From Asterionella formosa (Eukaryota), in assembly GCA_002256025.1 (NCBI GenBank), contig NKIB01014216.1:1-46024 (forward strand): a DNA stretch of 46,024 nt, in the 5' to 3' direction. Every line of letters starts with the position of its first letter. Positions within the stretch are counted from its first letter, which is position 1. Positions 5,443-44,000 of this stretch are shown piece by piece. Position numbers and translations under genes: made by a program. The notes under the pieces were generated by a model that saw nothing but the letters and a program-made list of their open reading frames with translations, ran no database searches and was not told where the DNA came from.

Positions 5443-5757
5443 TACCGGTATCATTACCGGTACACTAGACTACCAGTACCTGGTACCAGGGACAAGCACT
5501 ACTGTACAGTGGGTACCGGTATAATGGCTGTCAGTGCTTGATGACAAACAACGCACCGTGGTCCGTGGTATGAACTCCAACTGGCACGTAAGTAGGGGCC
5601 AGGTACCTGGTACACTGTGTACCACCTAGCAAGTTGCGGTCATTTTGCTTAAATAAACAATTTAATATCGGATAAAGACAGCTAAAGTTTTACTCTCAGC
5701 ACAATTACCGCAACTTGCTCTGGTACCAGGTACCTGGTACCTGGTACCCCTGGTACC
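5443..5757. repeat. Cluster of TACCGGTA and tandem (TACCWGG)n motifs surrounding MITEs
   Basis: TACCGGTA at 5443, 5455 and 5514. TGGTACCAGGTACCTGGTACCTGGTACCCCTGGTACC at 5721-5757. Confidence 0.85.
5622..5723. mobile_element. MITE family A, copy 1 (~100 bp, TA-flanked)
   Basis: TIR AGCAAGTTGCGGT...ACCGCAACTTGCT, bounded by TA|CCA on the left and TGG|TA on the right. Homologous to 5894 and 27442. Confidence 0.75.
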
Positions 5758-5893
5758 TTTTGAAAGCTGTACTGTATGTATGCATCGTTGAAAAAAAGGT
5801 GGCACAGCCATCATGATGACAAGGAGTGGTTTCATCAACAAAATATATTTACAGCCAAGAGAATATACGTCGGTATATGTATTTGACCAGGTA

Positions 5894-5975
5894 CCAGCAA
5901 GTTGCGGTAATTTTGCTGGAACTAAAGATTTAGCTATCTTTATCCAAGATTAAATGTTTATTTAAGCAAAATGGG
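5894..5975. mobile_element. MITE family A, copy 2 (inverted relative to copy 1, right TIR partly deleted)
   Basis: TA|CCAGCAAGTTGCGGTAATTTTGCT...TTTAAGCAAAATG-GG|TA. The interior matches the reverse complement of copy 1. Confidence 0.7.
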
Positions 5976-6212
5976 TACCAGGTAGTACACTTTTCCTTCT
6001 ATGTACATGCGCAATAGGGCACCACATTTGGATCGGGTTACGCTTCCCTGGTATTCATTTTATGTAGACACCGGTAGTCCACCTCCTCCCCAGTTGCTCC
6101 ATGTCAGCACTGCCACACACAAATGATGATGGCCATTGTTGGCCGCATTGATCGGACTAGGATACGACGTGGGGTTGGGGAAATTAAATGCTGGCTGTAT
6201 ACATAGATCTAC

Positions 6213-9176: not shown

Positions 9177-9234
9177 AGCTGATTGGCAATAATATAGTCT
9201 AGAATCAAGCTTGTTGGAGCTAATAGTTCCATTC

Positions 9235-10242
9235 TTATTTCGTCAATGTTGTTGAAACCCCATCTGGTTCAATGCCACCGCTTGAAAATGCCACTAAGGA
9301 AGCGAGTAAAGCAGAAAGGAGCACGACGATACCGCCGATAATTTTCAATCCCTTCACGAAGGTCCCAACGACCCCGAGTGTTCCCGTTGCTGCGGCTGTC
9401 GACAAGGCTTTGAGTTTTGTCAAGGGCTTTTTTGACAAAATCGCACGAAATTCGTTGGCTTCTTCGTCGCCCTCCTCGCACCGTTTGAATACAAAGCGAG
9501 TCCCTGACATACCACCCACTCCAATCCTTAATTTTTCGTCCACATAACTTGCATCTAAGAGGACACTACTTCTAGGGCCAACGTTGATATTGAGCCATCC
9601 ACCTGTCTTACCTAATGCTATGCGAGGCGCATCGAATAGGGCCTTAACAGCAACATTCGACAAAGGCTTGTCTAGATTGGTCAATCTTTCAGTGTCATTC
9701 AAAGCAATCGCATCTCCTCGCAAAATGACAAAACACCTACAGAGTCCCCACAAGGCATCAAAGGAAAGCACATTGATTGCTTCGCCCACCACCTTGCGCC
9801 CGTTAATCGACATGGTTCCGCAGCCAGTCGAGTTGGCTGCTGTTATGTGTTGGAATGTCCTTCTATTCTTAAGAATCTTTTGAGCAAGACCGCCCGGGCG
9901 AGTCCACTTCCCTCCGACGGGATTGTCACCCATTTTAGTCGTTTTGATGTATGCGACTTCATACAAACCCACCAGTGGCTTGAATCGAGCTTCTTCGTCT
10001 GATCCCTTTGGCGGGTTAAATTTATCTTCGAGATCACTGATATATATCGAAATCTCGCGTTCATCGCGCTCATCAGAATCAAGGTCAGCCAGCAAGGCGT
10101 CAACAGTAACCTTTGTGTCGCCTGATGATGGATGCAGCGACAAAAGCGAGCTTTGCCTTCCTGTCGACGACTGCCTACTTGAAAAGGCCTCACTAATAGA
10201 CTTTGGAGAAAATAGAACGAGGCACAATATAAGGAGAAGCAT
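9235..10242 (-). CDS. Plastid-targeted PAP/fibrillin-like protein with C-terminal hydrophobic segments
   Basis: A hydrophobic signal peptide is followed by SEA|F and a Ser-rich transit peptide. The motif LDASYVDEKLRIGVG...FVFKR resembles the fibrillin C-terminus. Confidence 0.7.
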   Translation of the reverse strand: MLLLILCLVLFSPKSISEAFSSRQSSTGRQSSLLSLHPSSGDTKVTVDALLADLDSDERDEREISIYISDLEDKFNPPKGSDEEARFKPLVGLYEVAYIKTTKMGDNPVGGKWTRPGGLAQKILKNRRTFQHITAANSTGCGTMSINGRKVVGEAINVLSFDALWGLCRCFVILRGDAIALNDTERLTNLDKPLSNVAVKALFDAPRIALGKTGGWLNINVGPRSSVLLDASYVDEKLRIGVGGMSGTRFVFKRCEEGDEEANEFRAILSKKPLTKLKALSTAAATGTLGVVGTFVKGLKIIGGIVVLLSALLASLVAFSSGGIEPDGVSTTLTK

Positions 10243-11039
10243 TGCGAGCTAACCCAACATTAGGTTGCAAGGACTGGTACCTGGTACGGATACCTCGTAG
10301 TAGTCTAGTCGAGTACGCTCTAGTTTCTAACCATGTACTTGACCTTTTTTATGTATCGGAGTACAAAAAATAAAGGTTCAAGGCTATGACGGCATCTGTT
10401 TTGGTACCATGGTAACAGGTACCAGCACCAGGTTTACTTCACTGTACTACAGCATAGCTAGCTACCGGAATAGATGCCGGTAGTTTACATCTCACATTCT
10501 TGCCAATGACAAGACTTTCTAATTCATCTTAACTATCTTCATCCAATTTGACGTTTTTTACTTTTGACAAGACAATTAGAACGAACACATTGTACCTTAT
10601 TCACCTGCAACTTGATAGCCTGATAGGTGAAATTTTTGTAAGAAATGATACAGTGATGCAATTGAATGGTGGCTGTCACCACCAACAGAACACATACAGG
10701 CCATTTGTCATCAATGTAGAATTGTATACATCATCAGCTTTGGCAACTTCAAGTGCTTCAGTAATGGTTCCAATTGTAGTTTGTGGAATATGATCATTGT
10801 CTGCAGGTTTTAGCTGTCAATTTCAATTCAACTATATTGTTCCTGGCCTTGAGGCCCAAGACTTGCCCATTGATTTATATTTTCGCGGTGCCAAATTTTC
10901 ATTTGCTTAGCAAGGCATTTTGACTCTTGGTTGTTGCATTTGTAGCCAGCCGATCTTGAATATACTCACATACCTGTACAGATCGAGGTAAGCCGAAAGT
11001 AAAAGCGAGTTCAAGTAAATTCAATGGCCCTAATCACAT

Positions 11040-14000
11040 CTAAGCCGCGAAATACACCACTTTTCGAAATTTCATTTACATAGGAGTGTTAATGATGGGG
11101 TACTTGACATGAATTTATGCCACTCTTCCAGTAAAGAAAGGTAACTATTAACGGTTTCATGTGAAGTTTTCACAATGAACTTTGAACTCGAGACTGAATT
11201 TAGTTGATGTTTCAAATAATTCATTTCAAAGTTCAACTAATATCCTGCTCTCGTGGCTAATTCATTTACTATACACATCTTTATTTGTGAAAAAGTAAGG
11301 ATATTTGTCGGTGTTGTATTTCATGCATGGACAATCTACAGTATATAGTTGTGCACTTCACATAAATAATATGAACTATTATAGTGAACAAGACTTCTCT
11401 TCGAGGTTTTCATGTGATGGTTCAGAATCATACAGTGATTTCCAAGACAAAACTAGTTGATGTTACAACTCATATTTTAAAAGTTCAAGATAAAATTGTT
11501 TTAGAGGATATATCATTGCGAAAGACAACTCAAGTAACGTATGGTACATATGCCAAGAAGGTATGAATCGGCCAAGATGTACAGTGAAAGCAAAGCGAAT
11601 CCTCATGCACCAAATTGAATCATCCATAAACATCGCCGCTGTAGGCTGAAGTAAGTGCGCATTGTCAATGTAAAATTGGCAAATTGAATTCGCACTATGC
11701 CAAAGCAATGCCGACTCGAGAGAGTGTCCTTCAGCGCTTATCAGAAGCACTCATGCGATGATAGCTAGCCAAGTTAAGTACTGGTACAAGCACCCCGAGT
11801 GCGTGTTCTTGTCTTGCGCTGTGTCGTGGCTCAGTTGTTCTAACCCCTTGGCGCTTTTTTCCCTCAAATACTCCATCCATACTCACGATCGGTAGATTGA
11901 TTATCACAGCGAGGATTGCAGTCATCGGATGCACGCTTAGTCAAAGTGGACCTGCTGCAAAATTCAAATCTTTCCATTCTCAAACCAGGGTACAACAACT
12001 TGGGCAACGAAGGTATGTTTTAATACGTTGGCTGTCGGGATTTCAGCATACCGCGCTTTGGGATTGTTGGATCTTGGATTCAACCAAGTCGGCGATGATG
12101 GGATTAGATCATAGGCACATGCTTTGTTTGGATATGCCTTGCATATGCTCTACTTGGCAGGGAATCACATGCGGGAAGAAGGAGCCACCATGGCGTTGGC
12201 TGATGAGATCAGGAGAGGGTGCGCTGTGACCAAGTTGTATTTGACTGGAAACCGATTAGCTAGGGCCAGATGGAGTGATTTCAGTAACAGAAGACATTCT
12301 AGAAGATGAACTGAGAAGGAGAAAAACGTCATATGGAGTCAATGACACTCGAGGGATCCAAGAGCTCTTTTTAGGCGGAACAAGCATGGGACTGATGGGT
12401 TGCCATGCAGTTGCTACAATGCTCTGAATGTACAAATCACCCATAATTGAGGAAGACACAACAGATTAAAATTTCATCATGCGAGTGAATTGGTTAACTC
12501 ATCAGTTGATTGTTTTCAATTTTAAATCAAGGCGTATTTTTTTACTGTAGTAGGACGATCTAATGGTAGATCATCCAGCGCATGTGCAATTAGGAGTATC
12601 TATTGGCTGTGTCCTCTCCCTCTTATCACACTTGTAGCCTCAGAAATTTGTCCCGATGAAATTATTAGCAAGACTGCGCCAGATTTTTTTGGTGTAGATT
12701 GTAGGTTCTGTTGGTACAAAAAGGAAGTCATGGCTGCTGCGCAAGGATTTTTGACCCTCTGAATTCATTAAAACACCAACATTCAACACCACTGTGAACA
12801 ATTTATTTTCAACATGGGGACGACACTTACAACTAGCATCTCCCTTCCAGATTTTCAGCTGCCTTACAATAAACAAATCTTTTATCAGCTCACATATGGT
12901 TTGTTTCACCAACAAAAGGTGGAATGATGCAACATTGAGATCGTCCGCAATGGATGCTTTTAAGGTAATATTTTTTCTTGCTATTTTTGCTATCATAGTA
13001 TCACCAAGCGAGTGATAATTCATAATGATATGCTGCTGTTCTCAACATTCATTTGACATTTGAACAGGCCTTTTCAGAAAAGGAGTGTTCTTTTGAAAGC
13101 AGGAGTGATAGAAGTTGAAATGATGCAATATGGAGACCCGGAATGGAAGATTTTACTAAAGTAAGCTTAATCCTCAGTTTTTGTCATCACATCAGCTAAG
13201 CGAGCGATAAATCACACGCTTTTGTTATTGTTCTCTATATATATTTCACATTTTAGCCGTCCATTTCACAACAGGAGCATCCTTTTGAATGCATCAGTGA
13301 GTTGCGGTGCTGCCTGGTGGCTAATGCCGGTGTCTTGCTATCAATTTGACTGCTCTGTGAAACAGTTGAATAGCACATGTGTGTGTTGCTTTCTGCTGTT
13401 GCTAGATCTATCATATGAATTACTGACACACTGTTGTTATTTAAATCTTTGCAGATCAATGAAGAAGTCATTTCAAGGACAAGAAGAAGGAAGCCATTGT
13501 GATGCATTCCTGTTGTAATTTCGCACCATGATGCCTCTTAAAGAATGAATAATTTTTTCATTCAGAATGAACGGCTTCTGTTTGTCTTGCATTGTCCTTA
13601 CAGATGTCGCATAATGCCTGCCTTCTCAAGACTGAAGATGCCATTCTGAAAGAACTGCTTTGTTTGATTGCATATCGAGATTTGTTTCCCATGTAATGAT
13701 GTGAAATACCGGTAGTTGAATTAGTAATCAACATATTTGATAGTACTTTTAAATTACGTAAACAAATTTAATACATTACGTGAACAAAATCATAAGGCAA
13801 TGTGAACTAAATTACAGAATTAATTGAAGTATTTTAAATAATTTCGTGAAGTATTTCAGATAATTATGTGAAGGTGATCACGTAATATAGTGATGATCAG
13901 GAAAGCATGCATGATACTCTGATCAAATAATTAACGTGATGTATTCAGATAATAAATAGATATATTCAAGTAAGCATTTTGATGTACTATTCAACTCATT

Positions 14001-14068
14001 CATGTGATCCATTCAAAATCAACTAGGCTTATTTACGTGATGGTCACTTCATGTAATACGTGGCTTAG
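11040..14068. mobile_element. Possible degenerate TIR element (~3 kb) with AT-rich subterminal TTACGTGA-like repeats
   Basis: CTAAGCCGCGAAATAC at 11040 matches the reverse complement of GTAATACGTGGCTTAG at 14053-14068 at 13/16. (A/T)(C/T)GTGA(A/T) motifs recur at 13750-14060. No TSD seen. Confidence 0.3.
11901..12427 (+). pseudogene. Frameshifted RNI-like leucine-rich-repeat gene fragment
   Basis: Consecutive LRR units separated by frameshifts: NLSILKPGYNNLGNEG, ALGLLDLGFNQVGDDG, ALHMLYLAGNHMREEG, AVTKLYLTGNRL, GIQELFLGGTSMGLMG, then a stop. Confidence 0.8.
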
Positions 14069-19737: not shown

Positions 19738-20030
19738 TCTTGTGCAATTTTAGGAGGATGCGCTTCGTCAGGGATTTTACTTGAAGCGAAGGCAAATGAG
19801 CTACATGCAACTCCGATCTAACCCTTTTGCTCTGCTGATGTGAGTGTAACGCGAGGATATCAGAGATGTGTGCTGACACTGGTGTGTGACAACATGAGAT
19901 CGGCTGAGATGCCGAAAATACAGGGAGCACTGCTACCTGGGACATCGACAATACTACCAGACCAGATAGGTGGGACCTGGTACCATGCCAGTAAGCAAAA
20001 CCGCTGCCTATCATCGGCGGTTTGTTTCCG

Positions 20031-20071
20031 GCTAGACTGAATTCAGTCCAACAGACTGGATTCAGCCTAGC
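20031..20071. repeat. Hairpin with 18 bp arms, each arm itself (near-)palindromic
   Basis: GCTAGACTGAATTCAGTC-caaca-GACTGGATTCAGCCTAGC pairs at 16/18. Confidence 0.75.
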
Positions 20072-20079
20072 TTTTCAAT

Positions 20080-21801: not shown

Positions 21802-21817
21802 CCAGGAAGGTCCGGTA
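21802..21817. mobile_element. Solo terminus of MITE family B
   Basis: CCAGGAAGGTCCGGTA is identical to 44163-44178. Confidence 0.45.
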
Positions 21818-23482
21818 TCTTCGACTTCCAGTATACAAATGGGGTACATCGTCCCAGTATACATACTACTGATTTCAATCAGTTTCTTTTGTTCAATCTA
21901 CCAGCTATACTACATATATGTATGGTTACGAATGTGGAGGGTATACTTGGCTGGCTGTCACGGCCTCATTTCAACTGTACATATGAGCATCGTTCACTAC
22001 ATATATGTACATACATATGAATAGCTGTTATGTATCATTAAACTCCTACACATTTGAATTTCAGTTGATTTTATAGCACGAGTACTAATACCTAGTCCAG
22101 TGTCAGCACTTCTTCAAATCCATTGCTGTTTCAGAGAGAACTGGAAGGCGATTTGCTGATTGCTTTTCAGCAGTTCAGCAAATCCAGTACTGGCTGTTTC
22201 AGCAACTGGACAACAATTTGACGTATTAATCAGCATTTTGTTATCTAATAATAAATTAAAGTTTCAATAATTACTTGCCCGCCCAGCAGGCATGACATAA
22301 ATCATCTGGAAGGAGCTGAAATTGAAATGGTGTGCACAAAATTTGCATTGCTGGACGATCCAGCATAATGCTACCTGTTAAGAACAGATCACTATATAAA
22401 TAAATAAATGAGGAAGAATGGTGATGTCAGCAATATTCAGCCACCATGGAACTACTACATCATTCAGTTGATCATGGTCTCGAGGACCATTTATTGTTTA
22501 CCTTACAAAGATTCTATATTCTGCCTGTTTTGGGGAAGCAACAATGAACTTCTAGTATCAATCCAGTTGGTGTTTGAGAATTGTCATTGGAATCATCACT
22601 GATCCTATGTGTATCACACTGGATGTAGTGCAAATAGACTACCAGGTACTGGTGATATTTGTTTGTACCATAAATGTTGGCACACAATGTTTGGAAGTAT
22701 ATCTGATTAAGAAAGGATGAATCTTCTCAAGCAATATTTGATAATCATTTGGAGGGTAGTAAAGATCTATAATGAAGGTAAGGCATGCATGATAGGCAAA
22801 CAGAAGGAGTTCACTATCGTGCCAGGTATTATAAGGATGAATTATCTGGATCTGAAATATTCGAGGAACAGTGGAAGTTTGATTGAGCAAGTGGTCGATT
22901 TGGGACAACTAGATAATAGAATCACAATGAACAGATATGGAGAAACTATTCCTAATTTATTGCCTGGCTGGTAACCATCAAAACTAGCTAACTAGCAAGG
23001 AGTAGTACAATAGTATACTAAACTAGAGTAGGTAATGTTCAAAGTCATCCTTCAGCTGACACTGAAAGGATTATTATTTGTTGCACTTGATAAGAACTAG
23101 TCATAATAATATAGGATTCAATTTACAAATTATCCTGTCGTGAGTACTGGGCGATGCTAACGATGGACCAAAAACGAAAACAAAAAACAAAATGGTACTG
23201 TAGAGCAAATAATTTACTATAGACATAAGCATATGAACCGGTAGACTACACATAATGCATAGACTGTAACTACCGGTATCATTATAGCTTCTGTACGTGA
23301 AATACCGATTAATACATGTTTTTCTCCCGGTAAATGGGATTGCTTGACGCCATGACATGATGATACATATCACTTTTTGACACCTTTCGCTTTCAAAGCA
23401 CTGCGCGTCACGTTTTGGTTCGGTCACCAACGACGATTGATTCATGATGGATCAAACTCACAAACCTGCCACTACAAATAAA

Positions 23483-27430: not shown

Positions 27431-27441
27431 CGATACTGGTA

Positions 27442-27543
27442 CCAGCAAGTTGCGGTCATTTTGCTCAAACTAACATTTTAATCTACGATTAAAAAAGCTA
27501 AATCTTTAGTTGTTTTTTCAGCAAAATTACCGCAACTTGCAGG
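27442..27543. mobile_element. MITE family A, copy 3 (102 bp, most intact, TA target-site duplication)
   Basis: TA|CCAGCAAGTTGCGGTCATTTTGCT...AGCAAAATTACCGCAACTTGCAGG|TA. Confidence 0.8.
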
Positions 27544-29585
27544 TACTAGGGTATACATTTGGTCAAGAAATTGTTTATCAATTACTTGTAGTCGAAATCG
27601 CCATTGAAGCTACAATGTAAAGCATTAGTGTTACGCTAACAATATATTTCTTAATGAAATCGTAGATGTAATTATCATTATGGCTTATGTTGGTTCTTGG
27701 CAGTGAGATCTTCTGGCACCATTGTGCTTGTTGTTTGTTGAGGGTATTTGACCACCAAATTCTGTGATCGGTGCTGTTGTAATGTATTACCGGTAGTCTT
27801 TCATAAAATCGCCCTTGGCAAAAAAGAGTTTTATTTTTCCTTTAGTATTTATTCCAGTATTAATTTTCATTTTAGAAAGTAGTCCTAGCAAAATTGTACT
27901 GCCCAGCAAAATTTAAATTGTTTGTATGTACCACACCAGGTTGTTGATTCCTTCTTCCCATCCATATTGAGAGCAATAGGTTTATCATTAGATTTTCGTT
28001 GTTCTAGGATTGTCAATGCATTCAGCAAACATATAGTAAGACCGATCATTCAATCCTGTGACTGAACATTTGTTAAGTTCAATTTTAGGCTGTAGTAGAG
28101 AAGGCAATAATAATCTTTCAATGCTCAACAATTTCCATTAGCTCCTAGTAGTCTCTGCCATCTAATCTAATGCCTGCATTGAAGTGCATACTCGCTAGTC
28201 ATTGAGAGACCCATGCTGGAGGGTGATACAATGCTAAAAGAGAGACCACCCCCATTATTTATGAGCATGCCTGTTCCACTACTACTAGCTTCAAAACTGT
28301 GACAGCTATCAAAAATAGTTAACCATGATTGAGGGTGAATGTCACCCTGATTCCGGTTCAGTCCACAATAAGTTATCCAATTCTGTCCAATTCTAGACTT
28401 GAATTCCTTGAAGAAATTAAGTCATGTTCTCAATTCCTATGGGGGTCCGCCCCCTAGAGTCAAAGTATAACTACTTTTTGAGAAGGTAATTTTGACCAAT
28501 GACTATTATTTCAGGCAGTATCCCAACAACTAGTGTGTAGCTAGTTTTCGAAAAATGAAGGAGGGTGCCCATCAACCTTCAATTGAATCAGACCAAACCA
28601 TAAAACTGACAGAAGTTCTGGAAACCAGTTCCATACAGTAGTGAACTTCCGCCTGATGAAGTATACTAAGTGCCACTGTGGGAGTCCACTCCTACTACCT
28701 GGTACTTGGTACCGGTACGACATACATATTATGTACCAGGGGTATGTATCCAAATATCATTAGGAACAAATAGTTTCAAAACCTGGAAAACTACTTTTGA
28801 CTGCAATATTCATGTGTCAAGAATATAGCATCAATGACTATAATGAGTGACAAGGACTGTGAACTCAACTATGGTCCAATGAGTCAAATGGTGCGTTCCC
28901 ATGTCAAGAAGCTTGCAAACAAGATTGATGTCTTCGATCAATCAGAAGAAGGTTTACATCAACGAAAAGGGAAAACGAAGAACAGGTTCTCGAATTCGAA
29001 GTGTGATGAATTTGATTGAAACATTAGTTTTAGTTTAAGCTTATAATTAAGAAACAATGAGAATTGACAGAGTAAGGTCAAAAGCGAAAACTAGGACGAA
29101 GGCTAGCAGCAGAAAAAAGGTAACAATACTACCGTTCGTCGTACAACAGGTAAGACCTACGTAAGAGGATTCCCATCAGAAGGGAAGGAGTACGATACCT
29201 TTCAACATTCATGTACTCCTATCATTCATGCATGGATATGGCAAACGTTGTAGACCCAAAAATACCGTTACAGAAGCACGCCCATCGTCTTTATTTTTTT
29301 TTATAACATTCTTTCTAGTTTCGAAACCTGTACAAATAGTGATAGTGCACGGTTCGGAACGGAAACGAGCCAGCTCAGATGTTGTAAATGATGTGCCATG
29401 CATACATAGATCATGAATCTTTTGTACCCCTGCTACTGGTACAGTCTCATAGTATAACTGAAATTTGCGGCATGTCGTTACCGGTAAGAAAGTCAACCGC
29501 ACACTGGCAAGATTTCTTCCATACTAACTAGTTAGTGTATATCTAAGAAATTATGTATGTACAGTCACCGGTAAGCACGACTATT

Positions 29586-29890
29586 GGTACCGGTACCTTT
29601 CCATGTACTCCATCCTACATACCAGATACTCCATACCTGGTACAGTACCAGGTACTGGTAACAACCTCGGCCGTATTATGCAAGCAGAATTCGGACCATA
29701 ACGGTCGGCATCACCAGATAACTATGGGCTCCGTACCAGGGATTATCACTGTGATTTACTGGATGCCCACTGGCAAGGAAACCTGCCTGGCAGAAGATTT
29801 ACGTATGCGACATCCAATCAACAGACGACCCTGGTACCTGGTACCAGTACGAGGTACCCTGGCATAGGTTGTATCGGGTACCTGGTAGTA
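29586..29890. repeat. Cluster of TACC(W)GGTA motifs upstream of the MATE gene
   Basis: GGTACCGGTACC (29586), TACCTGGTACAGTACCAGGTACTGGTA (29634), CTGGTACCTGGTACCAGTAC (29831) and GGTACCTGGTA (29877). Confidence 0.85.
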
Positions 29891-30164
29891 TGACCAATAG
29901 TAAGAGTAGGTAAAATACAGCGAGACCGGTACGGTAATTACCTTTGACATTCAGCCAAGGCGAGTCTCCTCCATACATAACCAACTCGTTTCTTTCTCCG
30001 CATAAAATGTTGCAGATGTGTTCCACCTTGCAGGAGAGCTGCGAAAATGGAAATATCCGCTCCATCCGTGGCCAGCATTGCAATCGCCATTCCTCATTTA
30101 CCAACCTCCAGAGTTTCGAGCCACGGTTAATAATTTGTCAGAGGCACTCTGTTGAGTTCACAAC

Positions 30165-32500: not shown

Positions 32501-32921
32501 ATGTCCCGATTCGTGGTTGCTCGATCACTGCGACATACATGAACATATAATATGTTTCTTCTTTACTCTACCATCCCAGTCATGCATGAAGTCCGCTATT
32601 AGATGGACAGTTCCAAATATATTGCCAGATAATTTTCACAGAGTGAGATTGTTTGATTGTACTCGTGCACACTTTTTCCAGCAGAAGTACCCTTAAGTCA
32701 TTATATTAGTTGGTGATTATAGAATCATTTTAAAAATATGTCCCATCCCCTGGATTTACTTCCTATAAATTGATCATCACCCCCCTACACAAGTTCCGAG
32801 GACCGCCTTGGTTGGCTACCAGCCATAACATATAAAAAAAATAGCTGCATGCTATTCATGCACCAGGGCACCATGTACGTACAGTAGAGTAACGGATGAC
32901 TAAGTTCGCCAGGCAACTTGG

Positions 32922-33122
32922 TTACCGAAGCTTGCTCAGTGAACGGAAACAACTTTTCACTTCGGAGAACTCTTTACCGCAACTCGATTTTTCCAGTGTT
33001 CCTGCTTTCTGATTAATCAGTACACAAGTTGCATATGATTTCATATGTTGTGGGCACGTTTCTTTCATTCGACCAAACATTTTGGTCAACCGATTGGGCT
33101 GCTGGGGCGTTTTCCTCCTCAT
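32922..33122 (-). CDS. Small twin-CX9C mitochondrial intermembrane-space protein, NDUFAF8-like
   Basis: 66 aa with CPQHMKSYATC and CGKEFSEVKSC, both C-x9-C. Confidence 0.7.
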   Translation of the reverse strand: MRRKTPQQPNRLTKMFGRMKETCPQHMKSYATCVLINQKAGTLEKSSCGKEFSEVKSCFRSLSKLR

Positions 33123-33537
33123 GGTGGACGGATGAGAACAAGCCAGTAAATCTGACAGTGAAGAATCTAAGCCCGTAACAAAATAACCAACAGGGTCTTT
33201 CTCGCGCCGCTCGTGTGCATATATTCTGGTGCTATCTAAGGGTCGTTCTTATCATTTTCGATTTAGTATCATATTTTTTGAAAAAGTATCATGCAACGGC
33301 TGCTCGATTTATACCGAAAAAATCCATTCTCCACAAAAATAAAAATAAAATTGTATCATCAAAAAGTATCACGAAAATTCAACGGCTACCGGCTGGCTAC
33401 AAACATGTGATTTTCCTTCCAGACTACCTGTACATAATGGTACCAGGTACCGAACCAGTCCTCAAACCATGCAAGAAATCTACGCGAATTATACATATGG
33501 ACTACTACAGTCAATGGTATTTGCAGAGGTATTTGTT

Positions 33538-33689
33538 GTAGTCACGTGATCATTTTCGTAATCTATTGCCTAGTAAGTGCTGGACGAGTGATAGTAGAAT
33601 GTACCGGTAGTGACATCCAAAGCCATAGTATTTGCACAGCTAGTATATGTCGTAGTCACGTGATCATTTTCGTATTCTATTGACTAGTA
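33538..33689. repeat. 38 bp direct repeat (36/38) containing CACGTG, in a divergent promoter region
   Basis: GTAGTCACGTGATCATTTTCGTA(A/T)TCTATTG(C/A)CTAGTA at 33538 and 33652. Confidence 0.85.
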
Positions 33690-34172
33690 CTTTGTCATTA
33701 ATTCCCGAATATCAGTACCAGGCACTGGTACCTGTAATTAGATACCGGGTATGTCTCTTTGCACATGACTCAATCTGTTCAATTCTCGACTCTGTGGTTG
33801 TCGTTCTTTGGTGTTGTGGCTGAACATTGCCACACACGGCCGCTATAATGATTGTATGGTTCTTCTTTGATGCACACCTTAATAATTTTTGTATATTTTA
33901 TGTAGATGTAAGGAAAAGTACTGCCCTGCAGGCGTATTTTCGGTTATTTTATTAGTGACAACGGAAATGATACCCGCGTGAAAACGTCAGTATCATATAG
34001 CCTACCAAGGATGGTGTCCGGCATAATATATTTCTCAGCATGTTAATACCGGTATTTTATAAACATTTAACAATGATACAAAAATAATGCCAAACAGCAA
34101 ACTTCACAACAAACCTTTCAGCAACTCCAAAAAATAACCCAGACAACCACGTAAGAAACCAAGTGATTGACC

Positions 34173-35987
34173 ATGACAAAAACAACAACAACGAAGCGCG
34201 CATCCAGAGCCATCAATAATTCCAGAGTGCGTCGCGTAAATACTAAGAAGCAAGACGGAAAATCGGAGCCTATGCTGAACGCTGACATTTTCTCGCTCAT
34301 CCTGCCAATGCTTCCACCAAGGGACATGCTCAATCTTGCGTGCTCTTCCAAATGGATGCTTCAGTTATTGAACCGAAGCGATATCCTGCGCTCGGCAGTA
34401 ATGCAAGGTGGATATATACAAGTTAGTATGATGAACTTGATTAAATTACTCAGAAGTCCTTGTAAGATTCACCTTCCATCGTGCTTGAGAATGCTCCGGA
34501 TTGCGTGTGGGCAAACACGAAAACAATGCGAAAACCCTGGTTGCTTTCGCTTGGCTCGTAAAATTGATGTCAATTTCGGCCTTTTCTTTTGCTCTAGTTG
34601 TCTTAGTAAGAAGCGTCTATTCGACCCCAGCATCGGCCTGTGGACGGGTGAGCTAGTTTCTATTGGATCGAAAGGTCTTGCGAGTTTATGGAATGCCAAT
34701 TTCAGCGCCATCGTTATAAACGATCATGTTGCCAAAAAATGGAATAAAAGCATGTCAAAATTTTTAATCTTGGGTAAGCCTGTCATCATTAATGGAGAGC
34801 ACTGTGGACCTTTGGTTACTTTTGAGGAAGCGGCGAGTGCAATGAACAACATCAATAAAACGATCCATCACATTCTCCCGTTGCTTCCATCCAAAGAAAT
34901 GATCGCTTTGCTTTCCTCAACCCTCGAAGAAGCGACATTGGAATATAATAAAATCGAAGTCGAGCAATGGTTTCAGCGCATCGATCGACGTCAAATGAAG
35001 TTGGATGCAAAATACGAGAGAAACAAGAAGATCGTCGACGAAGTTGCAAACATGGTGCACAACCGCTGGAAAAGTGCCGTTCAGCAATGTACGTGGGAGG
35101 CATATGAGAATGACAATGAAACTGATTCTTACGATTCAAATTATGCTTCTACTCAAGGAACCGTTCGAATTAGACTAGAGACGCCCCGATTTCTGTACCG
35201 TATCGTCGCTGAACACATGAACCCTGCAGTGGAAGGAACTACTCCAGTGACTAAGCGCCAATTGAAAGAGATTGTCGAAAATATTAATCGTGACCTAGAT
35301 GAAGTTGAAAATAGTGGCTTTGCAACCCTCTCTTTTCTTTCCAACAACGCGTCTTCAGAGCCGTTTCAATCAGATTTACGAGCGCACTTGTCCCTCATTC
35401 TTCCACGAGCGCTGATATTTACACACTATCATCTTGACGGGGATTGCATAAAGTTCATTCGTTATGGGAAGTATTTCGAAGCCCTATTATGGATGATTTG
35501 GCAAGAATGTGGGGAAGTAAATTACTCTAGGATTGGATCCACTTTAGCGGGGGCGATGATGAAGGCAACGGAAGCATCAACGATCCTAGCGACACAGAAT
35601 CAGCGTAATTTGTTTGTTGCACTATGGGATGATAGTTACGACGCAGATTTGATGCCACCAAAATTGTGCAGGTCGTCAGGTTTTTGGTCCGTTGAAAGGT
35701 GTGAGGCCCACTATTTGAAAGTCAAGGAAGAATTCGAATGCTTGTCGAAGGTTCTCAAACAATATGAGAACAAAAAAGTTGTGAAAACATTTATTTCGAG
35801 AGAGGATCAAGAAACAGCAGGGGAGAACCGCATGTGGATTGCAATAAAGATGAACTCCCTTAATGCTTTATGGTCAGACAGGAGCATCATAAAGCACCTG
35901 CGGACGGGAAACTTTGACTCACTCTTTGTACATCATCACAGTATAGCAACAGGTCGATGGGATAGAAGGCACAATGACAACCGATGA
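34173..35987 (+). CDS. Uncharacterised ~604 aa protein with an F-box-like N-terminal motif and a CxxxxC...CxxC cluster
   Basis: Long intact ORF with LNADIFSLILPMLPPRDMLNLACSSK and CENPGC...CSSC. Confidence 0.7.
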   Translation: MTKTTTTKRASRAINNSRVRRVNTKKQDGKSEPMLNADIFSLILPMLPPRDMLNLACSSKWMLQLLNRSDILRSAVMQGGYIQVSMMNLIKLLRSPCKIHLPSCLRMLRIACGQTRKQCENPGCFRLARKIDVNFGLFFCSSCLSKKRLFDPSIGLWTGELVSIGSKGLASLWNANFSAIVINDHVAKKWNKSMSKFLILGKPVIINGEHCGPLVTFEEAASAMNNINKTIHHILPLLPSKEMIALLSSTLEEATLEYNKIEVEQWFQRIDRRQMKLDAKYERNKKIVDEVANMVHNRWKSAVQQCTWEAYENDNETDSYDSNYASTQGTVRIRLETPRFLYRIVAEHMNPAVEGTTPVTKRQLKEIVENINRDLDEVENSGFATLSFLSNNASSEPFQSDLRAHLSLILPRALIFTHYHLDGDCIKFIRYGKYFEALLWMIWQECGEVNYSRIGSTLAGAMMKATEASTILATQNQRNLFVALWDDSYDADLMPPKLCRSSGFWSVERCEAHYLKVKEEFECLSKVLKQYENKKVVKTFISREDQETAGENRMWIAIKMNSLNALWSDRSIIKHLRTGNFDSLFVHHHSIATGRWDRRHNDNR

Positions 35988-36232
35988 GCTTGAGTAGCAT
36001 TTGCCTCTCGGCTATTCTCGCCTGTTGTTTGTTTGTCGCACTCAATGAGCACATCACTATTGTTCACACCAGCTCACATTCTGAGCTTGCTGGTTTCTCG
36101 ACATGAGCGTGTCTCTAAAAAGTCTATTATGCTGAATTTTGCCTCAGCGACAATAATAGCTATAATTTTGAAAACCTTGAAGCTTTTGCAATAATTTATT
36201 CACGTGCAGAGCTTTATTCTACAATGCTGGTG

Positions 36233-37775
36233 CTATACTTGACTTTCTTGTATCCGCTTCCGTATTTCCGAACTGCTGACATCTACTCGGAACGCTTCCT
36301 CCATGACAAGGGTAAACATCTGCCGCACATCTTTTGGCATTAATTTAAGTTCGTCTTCACCACTAACAAACTTGGTCGAGTCACAGTCGGGTCGCTGTTC
36401 AAGCCGTCCTCCTACTACAAAGTGAACGCCTGCCCGTCCCATTTCCCGCACGGCTTCGAGCATGTTTTCTTCCGAGTTCCCGTAGTATTTTGGGTTCAAG
36501 ATACGTACCATTGTGTCAGTACCAATGACAAATCCCATTTGAGGGATGCTTTCATGAACTGTAGAAGAAAAGTGAGTGAACCAAAATTAATCGTGCTTCA
36601 GCAAGGATAAAAATGAAAGTCATACCTTGGGCCATGTACGGTTTGAGGGTCGCCACCTTTTGTGCAAACAATGGTGCACTGGTTAACAAGACTCCCCATT
36701 GCTTCGGAAGCTTATCCTTCAGGTCAAAGAACTGGTGAGCTCGCCGCGAAACATCCTTTGGCTCCATACTGGGCTTGTCCGGGTTGGTCAAACTGAGCTC
36801 GAGACAGACAGCGTCACTCTGCCCTTGCCATGCATATGTGGCTGCATGTGCAAGGGCCGTATGGCCCGAGTGAGGTGGATTGAACGATCCCGGAAATACC
36901 AAGGCTTGCATCGGAAGAACAGGCTCGACAATTGCGACGAATTTGTTGCCTTCCGTCGGCAACAGCAACACTGCACCCACCTCACCAGCCAGAATACGTT
37001 GAGCTCCTTCAAAAACCGCATCTGCCTGATCAACTTTGGTGAATGATTCCTCAATAAAATCGGTTTTTACTCCCATAGCGATACTTTCTTTTCCCTCCGA
37101 TTTCAGTTGTTCAATAGCTCGAAGAACCATGTCACCCATAAATTCATCTTCCTCCATGCGAGATCTCAAATTCGGCGTAAGCCGTACTTGACATTGCCAT
37201 ATACTTCCGTCCGCTTTGGATGCAACAATATGCCCAAAGCTGGGCTTTCCTCGCGTCGTGGAACTCACTAGCGCGCTCGAACAGCCGACTCCAATGCATA
37301 GTGAATATTCTTCCAAGTCACTTCTATACTGTAGCGCCTTGCGGAGAGCAGCCCTCGCCAACATTGCAGCTCCCTGGAAAGTAGCATAGGAGAAATCTTT
37401 TTCCACCGCAGATCCAACGTAGGCTTGAAAAGACTTTCGGTCGTAGGTGATTGTTCCTTCAAGGAACAGGGACGAAGCCCCAGGTGTCGATGCTAGTGTC
37501 GAAATGGCAGATCCGCCGCCCCCAGCAACAGCTACACAAACGTAGTTTGGTTTCTCCTGAGCCAAGTTCGTCCCAACAAGTCGTTTGGAAGTATCTTGAA
37601 GCGCCATCGTGAGCTGGGTGGAGCGAGCTATTGCAGCAAATGATCGAATCATGTATGATGAATAACTAAATGGGAATAAGAACGTGAAGCTCAACAACAG
37701 CACGAGTGGGGAAAATTGATCTTGACGCGGATTTCTTCTTCGTTTCAACGTTTTCGGACCGTTTCGCATGGCCAT
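36233..37775 (-). CDS. CinA/PncC-like plus nucleotidyltransferase (NadD/NMNAT-like) fusion protein; intron 36559..36625; start uncertain (37775, 37652 or 37607)
   Basis: The N-domain has GGGGSAISTLASTPGASSLFLEGTITYD. The C-domain has FPGSFNPPHSGH (HxGH), IGTDT..RI..PKYY and DVSSSEIR. A 67 nt GTATGA...CTCAC...TACAG intron joins the two ORFs in frame. Confidence 0.8.
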
Positions 37776-38191
37776 ACAGAAGTCAGAAGGCACCGAACGT
37801 TCTTAATAGCAGCTGAATGATCGGTCTCGGCACCAGAAGAAATGGCGAGACCAGTAATTTTAACAGCATCAGTTGCAGCCCATTGACATTGATCTATAAC
37901 CGGTATTCTGGTTGTTGAAGCAGCAGGTCGTCGTTCTTGTCATAAGCTTTACCGGATATATTCGCTCATTTTACCGTTATTTCTCTTTGTGTGCAAATAT
38001 ATTTGTTTAGTTATTGCTTTTAATGTAGTAGTCTATGTATAGCAACCGTATTTATTTTGATGCTGAGCCCGGCCCATCTGTTGTCTCCTCAGGCAGAGGA
38101 CAGACTTATTATGTAGAGTAGTAGTATCACCAGCAGCCAAACAAGACTTGCACCAAGCACACTTCATTTTATCCATGGCAATGATATATAC

Positions 38192-38247
38192 TACCGGTAC
38201 CTGGTACCAGGTGCCAGGAACTAGGTACCGGTACCTGGTACCTGGTA
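38192..38247. repeat. Tandem TACC(W)GG motif cluster
   Basis: TACCGGTACCTGGTACCAGGT...GGTACCGGTACCTGGTACCTGGTA. Confidence 0.85.
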
Positions 38248-38360
38248 ATGTACATGCCGGTCGTGCATACCGTTAGTAGTATAGAACACACACATATAAC
38301 GAAATCATATATAACAGAAACGAAATCATGTATAACAGGGGTACCAGGGTACAAGGTAGC

Positions 38361-41061
38361 GGTATTTCTTGGTTGACCGAAAACCCGGAAACTGTTTGAA
38401 TTTCATTACGATAAATCTCGTGCTATCAAAATGACGATGGCGATCGCCGTTTTCTTCCTAGATAATAGTAATTCATTATCCCATTTTTCGGATATGCTCA
38501 AACATACCATTGCTTAGAGCGTGAGCTATTGTAATGGCTGGTACGGTAGTCGACTTGTGTGTACTAGTAAAATCCATAATTTTATTATTTAGCTTAATGA
38601 CTCGAGTCGGTTGAGTCAAAGCACGAGAAAACTAATAGGGAAATGTATAGGCAAGCAGTATATATTTACCACTTAAATTGCAGTCAAATAGATTCAAGAT
38701 GGTTCATTTGTTACTTGGAAGCCAAGTCTATTTGCTTGTCATATGTCGAACAACCCAGTGGGCTTGCCGCCACCATTCTTTTCACTGTAGGAAGGAGTCT
38801 CTCTTTTTATTTTGGGCAATGCCACCATGACGGAACAATCAGACAAAAGTCGTCTGACCGTCTCAAGAAGGGACGCAAGGTGGAAGCGAGCACAAGCTCT
38901 TGGCACTTCATTGTTGGTTTCTTGGTTCTTTGCTGGAGGTTTCTTCAAGTGAGGAGACACTGCTGGCTGGTGTGCTTGTGATTGCCTTGTGATTGTCTTT
39001 TGTTCTACAATGACAACATGATAGAGAAAGTTTCTCGCCTAGCGGTTGGTTCATTCATCACATTTTGATCATTTTGTTGGTGCTTGTCCCCACCTTGAGT
39101 TTTTATGTTCCTTGGCTTGCTTGGTCATTGCTTCTGCAAAGATTGAAGAATAATTGGCTCTATTATCTCTCTTACTATCTTTGTATGCATAATTCTGTTG
39201 CATCCATCAAGATTCTCTTATCAGAAACACACCACTGAATAGAGCAAGAAAGAAAACTAGGGGCGATTTTCGATACAGCAATTGCCAACCATCAGAAATA
39301 TTTCGTCCAATGGAGTGCTGAGCAGCTATCAATTCTTACTGCATTTGGAGAGTTCCTGGTTGGATGTATTGTTGATTATTGGTTGTTGGGTGGGCACCAT
39401 GTGCACAACGGGATCTTAATTTCGCATCCCTTGCTACCAGTGGAGTACAAATGTTTGGTTCAAATTGGACTCATCCTTTATGTAATTCTTACAGCGGCAA
39501 TCAACAGTTTCAATGCAAAAACAAGGGACAATGCTGCAATTTTCGACACATGGAACGACTGCCTTCAATTAATTGCTTGTGAATTCGACATTTGGAACCA
39601 AGACAATCTATTTTTTTACCAAAATTCGAATCCTGAATCAACTTGCAGCATTCATGTCCAATATGCAAATGACAGAACGTGCAGTCAGTGGGGAAAGCTT
39701 TTTCCAATAATGGTAAACAAGAAGAAGGTAAATATGCACAGTATGCATGGTGTTGTCTTGTCATTCTTGCAATGGTAACATAATGTTCACAATCATGGAA
39801 ACGCAAGTGACAACAAGGATGGGGCAGGTAAAAAATCACTTAACCAATAAGTAGGATGAGAGAGGGCAAAGACTACATTCAATACAGCAATATTACTACT
39901 TAAAAGAAGAAATGTCTAAATAGGCAGGAGAAATGCAATTCAGAGTTTTATCATGAGCAAAGGTGGCTGATTTGATGCTTCCTTTCTTGACATAAGAACT
40001 TTGAGGATATTCAGAAATAAAATATGGAACTGTTTGAGAGCAATATGTTGCTTACAAAACCAAAGAATTCTATTTAAATTCAAAATGATTTGGGATTAGA
40101 GGTGCATGAATCACTGGCATGATTCACTTCATTAATGCGAAAAAGAAAGTGACATGTCTAAATCACATGGAGAATCTGGTTGCGGAGTTGCTTGCTACTA
40201 GGAATGTTGAGTTGGGGATTGCCAGTCACATTTGTGCACTCAAGGTTTCCCTTAAGGTAGATGAACAGCTATGGAGGATAGAAAAGAATCCAGGAGTTTC
40301 TGAAACTTAGTAGAACAGTTCCTACTTCATACCAATACTGGGTAACAGAAGGAGATCAATTCATAGCGTAAAATCATAATTATTAGCAGAAGTATTGGCA
40401 ACTAACATGGCTGAACAAATATACTGGAATTATAGTGGTCTACAATATACCAAAATGTAAGTATAAACCATGATGGTTTGTTCATACTCCATATCAGGTA
40501 CTACCAGTACCCCGGACCATACCAGGTATTTATTTATATACCGGCATACCGGGATGCCTTGAGAGCATGCTGATGAAGAGTGAATCGACTTAATGTACCC
40601 TCCTGGTACCAGCAGTAGCAGGTAGTAGGTACCAGGTACCAGCAATAACAAATGAGCCATCATGAAACAATTGCATTGCCGGTAGACTAGACTTAAACCG
40701 GTACCAGTACAGCAAGGCCATATTTATTTCATGTATACTTTATTTGTTTTTAATCAATTTATATGTTGCCAATACATTTCCCTATTAGTTTTCTCGTGCT
40801 TTGACTCAACCGACTCGAGTCATTACGCTAAATAATAAAATTATGGATTTTACTAGTACACACAAGTCGACTACCGTACCAGCCATTACAATAGCTCACG
40901 CTCTAAGCAATGGTATGTTTGAGCATAACCGAAAAATGGGATAATGAATTACTATTATCTAGGAAGAAAACGGCGATCACCATTGTCATTTTGATAGCAC
41001 GAGATTTATCGTAATGAAATTCAAAACAGTTTCCGGGTTTTCGGTCAACCAAGAAAATACC
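38361..41061. mobile_element. 2.7 kb non-autonomous element with ~295 bp terminal inverted repeats (38361..38655 and 40766..41061)
   Basis: The two arms are near-identical reverse complements with few substitutions or indels. No intact ORF lies between them and no TSD is evident. Confidence 0.75.
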
Positions 41062-44000
41062 TGATTTCGCGACATCCGTGAGCACTATAGTAAGTAATGT
41101 TGAATACAACCAATTTTTAGTTCTGGATTACCAGTACCAGGTCTTCCGAGTACCTGGTACATATACTTGGTTTTAGAGCAATTCCCGCTCCAGCTATCGT
41201 CTTGCCATTCAGGGACTTCTAAGTAATTTTTAGGCTCTAAGTAATTTCTTAAGTAAATATTATTTAGGGGCAATATGAGGCACATCGAATTTTTCGGCAT
41301 CATAATTGCCGATTTTAGCATGACAGCCAGAGAAACGGCAATATGCATAGAGATGGTACAACAAGCAACAAGTGTAAAACACATGAGAATGATTGTAACA
41401 TGCAACATCAATGAAAATTGAACATGATGTTGCTTTGAAGCAACCAAAGTATGAAATGCTATGTTAAAAATAGTGTCAAATGAGAAATAGAAAATATTGT
41501 TTTGGGTTAGAAATGCAGTAAAAAAATATGAGTTTCAGTGGAGATGTACTATACATTGTAGCACTTACTACATAGGCAACAATGACTTTCCATCACATGA
41601 TCGAAGAGCGAAATGAAACAGATAAGAAGAAAAAGCTCAACTCAATTGAAATCTGCATCGTCATGTAGCGTAGATGATCTGGTTGCTGCAACCATGAACA
41701 TCGCTGTAGTCGCCTGACCCAAGTTGCTTGCAGCCCTCCTCCCGCAGTCGTTCCTCCCATCAAACAGCAGCCATAATCATTTCATTTCAATCTGTTCTGA
41801 TTGATTGTGATCGTCAGGAAGCTCCAGCACTATCGACTTCCTCTAGCTGAATATTTTAACGTTGCTTGTGATGTGAACTCATAGTAGAAACTCAGCAAAG
41901 TGCGTTAGTACAAGAAAATCATTGCTTGGCGGCAATTTTGACATCATTGTCAACGACTATACAAATCAACAAATACAATCAACAAAGTCAAAACACCACA
42001 TCTTCAAAGAGTAGACATTGATAAATACATTGGTTCTTATGTAGATAGATACAATCAAATCAAAACGACAGTGCAGAATGACAAACAACGACGGAAGCGA
42101 TCAAAACAGATTATGGAAGCAATCAAATCGGAAATTTGATCAATAGGATCTACAATCCACATTCAGTGTTTCACTGTTGTACTCACCGATCCGCTTCAAC
42201 TAGCATATCAATCAGCAGACGAGCGATGGGATCAAAAAAAGACAAACGTTGCCTGTTGCAAGGCCGAATAGAGCAATGGCAGGCAGGATAGGCAGAGTGA
42301 GAATTATAATTGTAAGGAAAAAATCAGGCATACCATACATAAAATCAATCAATATGTGAACGATATAATTTAACATTCTGGTCTCATAAAAATAATTCTG
42401 AGTCTACAGCGATAATATTATAATGTGTTCAAAGTCAGTGTTAGAGTTTGGCTTAAACCATGCATGGTTATTTCAAGTACCATGTGCGATTGTAGGCTAG
42501 ACGACTACAGGTAGAATATCCGTTAGGGATGATCACATGCACGACCGGAGCAAAAACTTCCCACCAACATCAGATGTATCAATATCATGTTTGTCCAACG
42601 AAATATGGACGACGCGACTACATGAATCTCTCGAGAAGAAAAGCAATACAACAATTATACAAAGAATAGCTACTGGAGTCATCGTCACTGAACTGATTTC
42701 GCTTCAAACCGTCATGATGGACAACGATCGGGCGGCATGGTGAAAGGTGAATTGCCAGAGTCCACTTCTCAGGAGATGAACAAAAACGAGGTGAAAACTA
42801 GATTAAATTTACTCGAATCTGTATACTATATAAAATGGTTTCCTTAAGTAGACCCATTGCCGATTTCGGCAATCCCAGGGCTGGAAAACCGAGGGGCAAT
42901 TGGTGTCTGTTGTCTTGCCGAAATGCGAACATATGAAATATACAAAATATATTTTAATGATGGGCAATATCGAACCTTTGGCAATTTTCGATGTGAAGAT
43001 AGGAAATATACAAAATACACTAATGTGATGGGCAATAGTAAGCTAAAATTGACATTTATACTGTAGTTGTGGGCAGTAGGTAAGCGAATGACGCGAGGAT
43101 AGCTAGAGCGGGAATTGCCTCAACAATACCCTTCTTGGCGGCTACTTGCCTTCTCGTAGTGTACTCGCAGGCAAGAGACCACCTCGGGCATGTATTGCCT
43201 TCAGCATGATCCCACCGCATCGACCAAATACCAAAGCCAACTGAAGTCGAAAATATCAAAACACGTCACTTGGTCGAGAAAATTTTCATCAATAGTCGAA
43301 ATTTTCAAAAAGTGTTTCCCCACCACATGAACCAAATCCTAAAATAGTCAAATCTCGCGCATAAATTTTTAGCGAATAGAAATAGAGGTAGAGTGTGGTC
43401 ACATGTGTATCATTGTTTATATATGATGGGTACTACTATGAATACATGTTTACCGGATACTGATAGCTACTACACAAAATGAAAAAATGATGATAGTGAC
43501 TCATCAGATGATGACTATTTCTACCATTTCTCCAAGATGTATCGTCAACTCAGAAGTAGCAATGTAAAGCAAAGTCGACATCGGGGAGGAGGATCCAAGG
43601 TTGACAAGTTTTCTAATGTTTTTCAACTATTTTAAATCGAAAGTTGCAGCTAGCTAAATCGGAAAAATTGAAATGATACTAGGAAATATTTTACAACTCT
43701 TCTTTTTCAGTTTCTAGAATTGATTCCACTCATCGCCTTAAAGTTTCTTTACAATGCTTCATCGAATTCTGCTAAAAAATGATCCAGAGCAGAACAAGAC
43801 AAATTTTTAGGCAGCAGAAGTCCAACACTGCTATTTTCATGACACAATGACGAACGGACTTGGAAGTAAAGTTTTGGTGATCATGACACTTTACCTGGCT
43901 GTTTCATTGCCTAATATAGTTGCAGTGAGATGCGAGAGTCAGCTCCAAAGTAGTCTACCATGAATGATTCCAAAAGAAGTTGTTGGGCACTGCCTGCATC

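Follow-up and report, generated by a model that had tools for sequence, protein, structure and literature searches.

The stretch of DNA considered here, called the window below, is the entire contig C14216 (46,024 nt) from the genome assembly of the diatom Asterionella formosa (68.4 Mb in 15,436 contigs). The sequencing runs in which it occurs are for the most part freshwater metagenomes. Its genes contain introns and are eukaryotic; their bounds and starts were placed by hand from a list of open reading frames (ORFs). Between them lie short words bounded by TA, namely TACCGGTA with the core CCGG (13 copies), the two TACCWGGTA words TACCAGGTA (8 copies) and TACCTGGTA (13 copies), one copy of TACCATGGTA, and TACCAGTA/TACTGGTA (10 copies). 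A sequence-only reading of the window had proposed that these words are serial excision footprints of a family of MITEs (miniature transposable elements with inverted repeats), MITE A. We consider it likely that the motifs are indeed excision footprints, left at about 55,000 intact sites by TA-duplicating IS630-Tc1-mariner (ITm) transposons, with pogo elements and a second group, family B, as their makers.

A scan of the full window found all 13 copies of TACCGGTA exactly where they had been reported, each of them outside the gene bounds. Three copies (5443, 5455 and 5514) form a putative scar cluster at 5443..5521 between divergent HD-domain and kinase genes, and the stack TA-CCAG-TA-CCTGG-TA lies inside this cluster at 5471-5485. 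The array at 5720..5758 reads TA-CCAGG-TA-CCTGG-TA-CCTGG-TA and is followed by a decayed unit. Upstream of the gene at 9235-10248, the segment 10272..10426 holds TACCTGGTA (10278) and, as claimed earlier, TACCATGGTA at 10405, which is its sole copy in the window. An isolated TACCGGTA at 13707..13714 is followed by TACCAGGTA (22640) and TACCGGTA (23271) upstream of a carrier-like gene (22640..23278), and by two copies of TACCGGTA (27788, 28710) with one of TACCTGGTA (28696) at 27788..28718. The dense field at 29479..29887, upstream of a MatE gene, comprises TACCGGTA at 29479 and 29588, a further motif at 29879 and the stacks CCTGG/CAG/CCAGG/CTGG (29634-29660) and CCTGG/CCAG (29835-29849). Next to a 606-aa frame, on its upstream side, TACCAGGTA (33441) and TACCGGTA (33602, 34047) occupy 33441..34054. 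Two stacks, CCGG/CCTGG and CCGG/CCTGG/CCTGG, make up 38192..38247, and the putative scars at 40502, 40520, 40630, 40702, 41129 and 41151 (40502..41159) lie in or beside an element with terminal inverted repeats (TIRs). The mixed arrays described before are present at 5720-5758, 29830-29845, 38192-38247 and 40611-40642, the last with one full 9-mer only.

The abundance of these words is far above expectation. When the 24,888 non-genic window bases were shuffled 200 times with their dinucleotides preserved, TACCGGTA occurred 0.13 times and TACCWGGTA 0.19 times on average, with a maximum of two each. TACCWGGTA is non-genic in 20 of its 21 window copies; the exception, TACCAGGTA at 45829..45837, lies in a Ty3 integrase frame and is probably a chance occurrence and not a scar. 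Genome-wide, where the reversed word served as the control for each motif, we counted 28,528 copies of TACCGGTA (control 1,718), 26,886 of TACCWGGTA (control 902) and 16,745 of TACCAGTA/TACTGGTA with their CCAG/CTGG cores (control 3,655). The four TACCWWGGTA words taken together showed no such enrichment (677 copies, control 851), and TACCATGGTA was absent from a genome sample of 398,701 bases (40 stretches outside the window). The comparison of coding and non-coding DNA that the sequence-only reading had suggested was made on this sample: its non-ORF part contains 161 TACCGGTA and 144 TACCWGGTA, against 19 and 13 in an equal amount of ORF DNA and against second-order Markov expectations of 3.4 and 3.1. 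The two motifs are the commonest non-homopolymer 8-mer and 9-mer of the sampled non-coding DNA, and their intact densities in non-ORF DNA are 81 (CCGG) and 72 (CCWGG) per 100 kb. CCAG/CTGG cores outnumber CCTG/CAGG cores by 110 to 35.

The origin of the words was followed in dispersed repeats, whose copies serve as reporters. For this survey 195 sequences (943 kb, window included) were aligned all against all, and clean indels of 3-16 nt were kept, clustered by context and polarised by the majority among related paralogs. Among the 691 distinct indels between repeat copies there are 39 derived 6-nt insertions. Twenty-one of these are bounded by TA, and 17 carry the core CCGG and turn a TA into TACCGGTA. 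Only one of the 17 is a tandem duplication; the other 16 are not, and no identical unit stands beside their TA. For instance, one MITE A copy (L022) carries a CCGG gain that is missing from 50 empty homologs, and one pogo copy (L059) a gain that is missing from 15. Such whole 6-nt insertions of the motif lie within transposon bodies, including a transposase gene. CCGG was removed in one of nine derived 6-nt deletions, and a gain of CCATGG was found once among nine derived 8-nt insertions.

The CCGG core matches the terminal bases of resident TA-duplicating elements that end in CCG. A DDE_1 profile search of the genome gave 93 matches, and 67 of the 70 loci fetched fall into three families, F1, F2 and F3, which have the DDE_1 domain, short TIRs and TA duplication of pogo elements; the Pfam scan was run on frames of F1 and F3, and F2 was assigned by the DDE_1 search and the family grouping. 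The spacing of the catalytic residues in F1 is DD35D, as counted by eye. Two of the families end in TA|CCGT and one in TA|CAGT; TA precedes 37 of 41 CCG ends, empty paralogous sites hold a single TA, and copies of one family are 99.4-100% alike at different flanks. The CCG ends have 473 matches in the genome (control 67). G stands before the TA in 0.30 of the CCGG motif flanks (n=385) and in 0.27 of the pogo CCG ends (n=37), and none of these 37 ends abuts a scar unit. In both CCG-ended pogo families there is also a second frame, convergent and 145-153 aa long, that has no Pfam match (L051:781-1215, L132:1380-1838). Genome searches with DDE_3 (PF13358) and Transposase_1 (PF01359) gave no match, which does not show absence, since the DDE_3 search missed proteins that hmmscan matches to DDE_3 and the Transposase_1 search matched no control.

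Insertion of an ITm element duplicates the TA, and excision by staggered cuts would leave the first two to four bases of the element on each flank before end-joining heals the break. For Sleeping Beauty and mariner, the accessible text of one paper places the cut three bases inside the element (PMC7827188). The same cut in the pogo families ending in CCG would leave two CCG overhangs, which might pair via CG and be filled to TA-CCGG-TA; a two-base stagger would give the same product. The rate of gain is in reasonable agreement with such a process. In 1,095 non-independent pairwise alignments with 72,509 substitutions we counted 170 CCGG indels. If a scar is assumed to be lost at its first substitution, this number leads to a steady state with about 29 intact scars in 100 kb, which is within threefold of the 81 seen. 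A footprint origin of CCGG is very probable in our view.

A TA-duplicating family with CCA ends, which the sequence-only reading requires, is present in the genome. Family B, found via recurrent TA-C words, ends in TA|CCA(C/G)..AAAAACTG, has 754 exact ends in the genome (control 2) and includes transposase-coding copies as well as a subfamily of 750 bp that is present in at least 40 copies. TA|CCA was read at 23 of 32 ends found, and the empty paralogous sites of two insertions (7 and 3 paralogs) hold one TA. One copy of 3.54 kb (C780:1240-4783), whose transposase is frameshifted, lies within a scar array. Contig C14068 (L322; 3,540 nt) consists of exactly one element, which suggests that identical copies were collapsed there. 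It contains a stop-free frame of 779 aa with all three aspartates; the N-terminal part of the transposase is in another frame, and this change of frame, which falls in a proline run rich in GC, might be due to a slip of the assembly. The window itself has a degenerate non-autonomous family B copy on the forward strand (44250..44758) with ends of the TA|CCA type, substitutions at both ends and the left flank GGGG-TA.

The flanks of the CCWGG motifs resemble those of family B. At positions -1 to -4 before the TA, the CCWGG motifs (n=337) have G.76, G.62, T.39 and C.49, and the family B ends (n=24) have G.79, G.67, T.42 and C.46; at position -1, family B differs from pogo (p=8e-5). Since family B inserts at the TA itself, which MITE A does not, this match is not trivial. 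Moreover, a scar unit abuts 4 of the 24 family B ends, against 1.4% of all TA. Two CCA overhangs that are joined over one mismatched base, or with the loss of one base, would give TA-CC(A/T)GG-TA. Further base loss at the junction would lead to CCAG/CTGG, and family B is probably the source of a part of the TA-CCAG-TA words. CpG decay of CCGG can be another route to the same cores, and CG methylation occurs in diatoms. We regard a footprint origin of CCWGG as probable.

The differing flanks (G before TA in 0.30 of the CCGG and 0.76 of the CCWGG motifs) and the unenriched 10-mer do not fit the earlier proposal of one series from CCATGG over CCWGG to CCGG, written by a single family. Since the two kinds of flanks match two groups of elements, the idea of a self-propagating, transposase-written microsatellite would apply to CCWGG, where a CCA-ended family re-targets sites that look like its scars, and not for CCGG. 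With GG ahead of the TA on its right and CC behind the TA on its left, a CCWGG scar would create two sites similar to the preferred GG|TA|CC. Repeated visits of family B, and of family B only, might in this way stack units into arrays.

The transposase of family B has about 900 aa, with 150 matches in the genome and 178 homologs elsewhere; among 120 listed homologs of a transposase of this genome, two come from the diatom Fragilaria crotonensis. D447, D596 and D634 are invariant in 34 homologs, and of 120 homologs examined, 112 showed the motif, with DD37D spacing in 108. For the homolog P0036, which shares about 48-50% identity with the C780 copy across the two main pieces, the predicted structure has a mean pLDDT of 75.6. 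The top 11 rows of its fold comparison are Mos1, SETMAR and Sleeping Beauty (Z 12.8-11.3, rmsd 3.1-4.6, 191-253 residues aligned), followed by integrases with Z 8.8, and the same three proteins ranked first in both fold comparisons of this model. A sequence search of the PDB with the family B profile found nothing meaningful. An RNase H-like transposase fold with a DD(D/E) triad is thus predicted. Together with its TIRs and the TA duplication, this places family B among the ITm transposons, and a duplication of GTAC is disfavoured. Compared with the pogo superfamily as outlined in the accessible part of its description (PMC7386202), family B is similar in its DDD triad, which is in register with F1, and in its size, which is in the pogo range. 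It differs in its DD37D spacing, its length of about 900 aa and its lack of a Pfam match; the spacing is tied to no family described there, yet it falls inside the Lemi/pogoR range.

Several points weigh against the interpretation of the motifs as footprints of pogo and family B. The indels were polarised by a majority vote of related paralogs, the pairwise counts lack independence, and the share of CCGG does not differ significantly between insertions and deletions (Fisher p=0.13). No site was found with its empty, element and scar states among 24 reconstructed empty sites and 7 more; the empty and the occupied state were observed together at sites, never along with a scar. CCWGG gains account for just 2 of 12 derived 7-nt insertions, and one of the two is a tandem duplication. 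The 14 CCWGG indels per 72,509 substitutions predict about 2 scars per 100 kb against the 72 seen, a shortfall of about 35-fold, so that most CCWGG motifs must come from hot spots, from older activity, from selection or from another process. Apart from older activity and selection, ragged alignments where hot spots lie might contribute to the shortfall. As to the assignment of family B, most of its sites read G-TA-C, where TA and GTAC duplication are inseparable, and only two sites with other flanks favour TA. Pfam scans of 8 pieces and 13 homologs gave no match for its transposase, the match of its profile to the pogo F1 transposases is weak (E 0.02) with the DDD triad in register, and Foldseek returned no row at E<=0.001 for the P0036 model (best 1.2e-3, Mos1). 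The similarity of the flanks would also be expected if family B merely targeted arrays made otherwise. Finally, the promoter-side bias of the window motifs, described below, leaves room for selection on function.

The alternative that survives best accepts TACCGGTA as a footprint and attributes the growth of the (GGTACCW)n arrays chiefly to replication slippage or to fold-back template switching within a near-palindromic repeat, with family B and MITE A only exploiting them as targets. The single clean de novo gain of CCWGG, the perfect duplication seen in the other of the two gains and the low rate of gain relative to the standing density speak for it, and in a quasi-palindrome a switch of template could invert the W. 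However, adjacent array units are identical in 19 of 75 pairs, where 18.0 are expected if units are independent, and there is thus no surplus of identical neighbours. The clean gain (L179) occurred at a TA without a neighbouring unit, and 260 of the 337 CCWGG flanks have no preceding intact unit and still keep the G bias (0.68). Furthermore, a family with fitting ends and a fitting target profile is present in hundreds of copies. We therefore consider this alternative unlikely. A simple slippage microsatellite was rejected on the chance level of identical neighbours and on the one duplication among 17 CCGG gains, while some array growth by template switching is conceivable. Neighbouring CCWGG pairs have the same orientation in 14 cases and the opposite one in 15, and at the hot spots of a 1.4-kb repeat, homologous sites carry strings of CCGG, CCAG, CTGG, CCAGG and CCTGG that differ from copy to copy.

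It is much less probable that the palindromes owe their origin and their maintenance to selection in promoters as transcription-factor sites, as has been proposed for oomycetes. In the window, the 1 kb upstream of gene starts holds 26 of 34 motifs but only 579 of the 1,756 non-genic TAs. The accessible texts on oomycetes describe TACATGTA (motif-1) upstream of 12,070 genes, note that it is a Tc1 footprint in C. elegans and reject such an origin because of its abundance and conservation (Seidl et al., PMC3520976). They also report that a MYB protein binds TACATGTA (PMC11134190) and list GTACCGGTA (motif-9) as another abundant promoter motif (PMC3520976, PMC10031896), in one of them as GTACCGGTA/ATACCGGTAT (PMC10031896). 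As far as these texts go, the oomycete and Asterionella motifs are alike in being TA-bounded palindromes that are abundant upstream of stramenopile genes, and motif-9 contains the same 8-mer TACCGGTA. The oomycete motifs are read there as transcription-factor sites, whereas in Asterionella, the diatom DNA analysed here, abundance goes along with de novo insertion. Selection in promoters cannot have produced the whole 6-nt insertions inside transposon bodies, including the transposase gene, and the motif flanks track the target preferences of transposons. Open chromatin or later selection could each account for the promoter-side bias, and a later use as binding sites would be compatible with an origin as scars.

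MITE A, to which the sequence-only reading had attributed the motifs, has 655 exact ends in the genome, and when its ends are read as CCAG/CCTG, TA precedes 74 of 84. The letters TA|CCAG...WGG|TA do flank the element as described, but their reading as a TA duplication with CCWG ends was wrong. We oriented 50 elements by their internal sequence; 30 of them have a clean CWG at each side, and in 29 of these 30 the two CWG form a direct repeat, 22 times CAG and 7 times CTG in fixed element orientation. In 14 of the 30 the CWG is retained and the TAC/GTA frame is missing on at least one side. The W is neither tied to one end of the element nor independent between the ends, and it therefore belongs to a target duplication. 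MITE A thus duplicates CWG and lands inside TACCWGGTA, which is its predicted empty site; no homolog of such an empty site was found among the MITE A sites tested. That MITE A wrote the whole series as a TA-duplicating element with CCAG/CCTG ends, which its exact ends and the TA before them might have suggested, is hardly credible given the CWG repeat in both orientations, the missing TAC/GTA frames, the unenriched 10-mer class and the lack of a transposase frame in the twelve translated loci (a 1.4-kb relative included). What stands of the earlier proposal is the likely footprint origin itself, with short gains at single TA sites, abundant CC-ended TA-duplicating elements and mixed-unit arrays without a signature of slippage; the proposed maker does not stand. 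The mixed CCA/CCT ends of MITE A (13 of 14) had been considered as a one-base microhomology for CCAGG, and this idea was dropped after the direct-repeat result.

In our interpretation, with pogo and family B as makers, MITE A would be a separate element that lands in the middle of scars, a user and not a maker of the motifs. All three window copies are on the forward strand. The complete one (27446-27539) has the CAG duplication on both sides (27443..27542) and TACCAGGTA as predicted empty site; the copy at 5630..5717 (CAAG...CTTG) has degenerate flanks; and the copy at 5898..5984, whose right boundary was set by reading the sequence, has lost one end and stands between CAG and TACCAGGTA (5976). 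With its CWG target duplication MITE A resembles the NuwaI group of PHIS transposons, whose TIRs usually start with GGG and which the accessible text reports from animals only (PMC4482050). Unlike these, MITE A starts with CAAG and its autonomous partner was not found, and we therefore do not file it there. A metagenome scan with a MITE A end returned 115 stretches, 8 of them matching this genome, and no autonomous partner, no Harbinger-type search having been made. Seven metagenome contigs (L203, L225, L251, L268, L281, L290, L292) carry sequence of the MITE A family, and L203 has 15 motifs in 1.2 kb.

Excision footprints of Tc1/mariner/pogo elements are known from assays of Sleeping Beauty (PMC7827188), ZB (PMC7913693) and Passer (PMC9976928). 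As described in the accessible parts of these papers, TA duplication, a staggered cut inside the element and end-joining yield scars of the form TA, terminal bases, TA, just as proposed here. Those scars comprise 0-4 nt at the donor sites of assays, whereas the present ones have cores of 4 and 5 nt at about 55,000 natural sites, and one of them resembles the target of its maker, which sets it apart from the three systems as far as they are described there. The mechanism is already known, and it is the scale that is without precedent that we could find: our literature search, which covered few subscription journals and no supplements, returned neither a genome-scale footprint account nor these motifs in diatoms.

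Footprints are usually seen as rare traces at single loci; here they would be the leading words of non-coding DNA. The intact gained sequence amounts to about 0.36 Mb (28,528 x 6 + 26,886 x 7 nt) and is concentrated before genes. The scars would form a countable record of past transposition, in which each standing pogo end or element corresponds to about 60-120 CCGG scars, and would also supply promoter sequence. The argument that a motif is too abundant for a footprint, which was raised against such an origin of the top oomycete promoter motif (PMC3520976, as far as its accessible text goes), would no longer hold. Moreover, aligning repeat copies and asking whether a motif is gained whole at TA is a test that can be used for any genome. 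Our results also indicate a DD37D transposase family that lacks annotation and whose targets show a sequence bias. More tentatively, and with somewhat less than even confidence, one could assume that the scar of this ITm family regenerates its GG|TA|CC target and so drives a feedback loop of promoter-side arrays, which then become landing sites for the CWG-duplicating element and perhaps co-opted regulatory sites, and that the oomycete TACATGTA and GTACCGGTA likewise began as scars. If true, stramenopiles would owe many of their cis-regulatory words to excision, a major source that has been overlooked.

The window contains further repeats. Its segment 38361-41061 is a 2.7-kb element with inverted repeats of about 300 bp (96% alike) and the ends GGTA...TACC; no target duplication or long frame was seen in it, and judging by depth it has several copies. 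A 1.9-kb element with 33-bp inverted repeats starting with GCAATT lies at 41178-43118. The Ty3-type integrase frame at 44999-46024 is truncated by the contig end, and near-identical frames open three short contigs. There is also a degenerate 176-bp tandem repeat (25497-26569; 60-80% alike) with remnants of reading frames, and two dispersed repeats of very high copy number occupy 28800-29210, which served as an indel reporter, and 33220-34000. A search for an allelic contig for 29000-30600 returned only a dispersed repeat, and a metagenome scan with one window protein gave no relative. Strain indels were sought on 26600-40760 in four runs and none was localised, 12 of 78 indel rows having been seen, almost every one of them from repeats. 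In run X2, one of the runs that differ by about 0.1-1%, four long contigs fall short of the window by 3, 6, 7 and 6 bases, which correspond to unit sizes; these differences are unlocalised and were not used as evidence.

Apart from the TA-bounded motifs, the indel survey revealed another, commoner class of short gains. A duplication of 2 bp around C or G would account for 167 of 204 derived 3-nt insertions, and 58 of 94 derived 4-nt insertions fit the pattern NN-GC-NN, in which the dinucleotides vary widely. An element that duplicates 2 bp without sequence specificity may have left these gains as footprints, but no such maker was found. Clusters of the 20-bp palindrome CCAATTTGGATCCAAATTGG, mostly between TA dinucleotides, were observed at L100:6742-7863 and L076:7987-8186.

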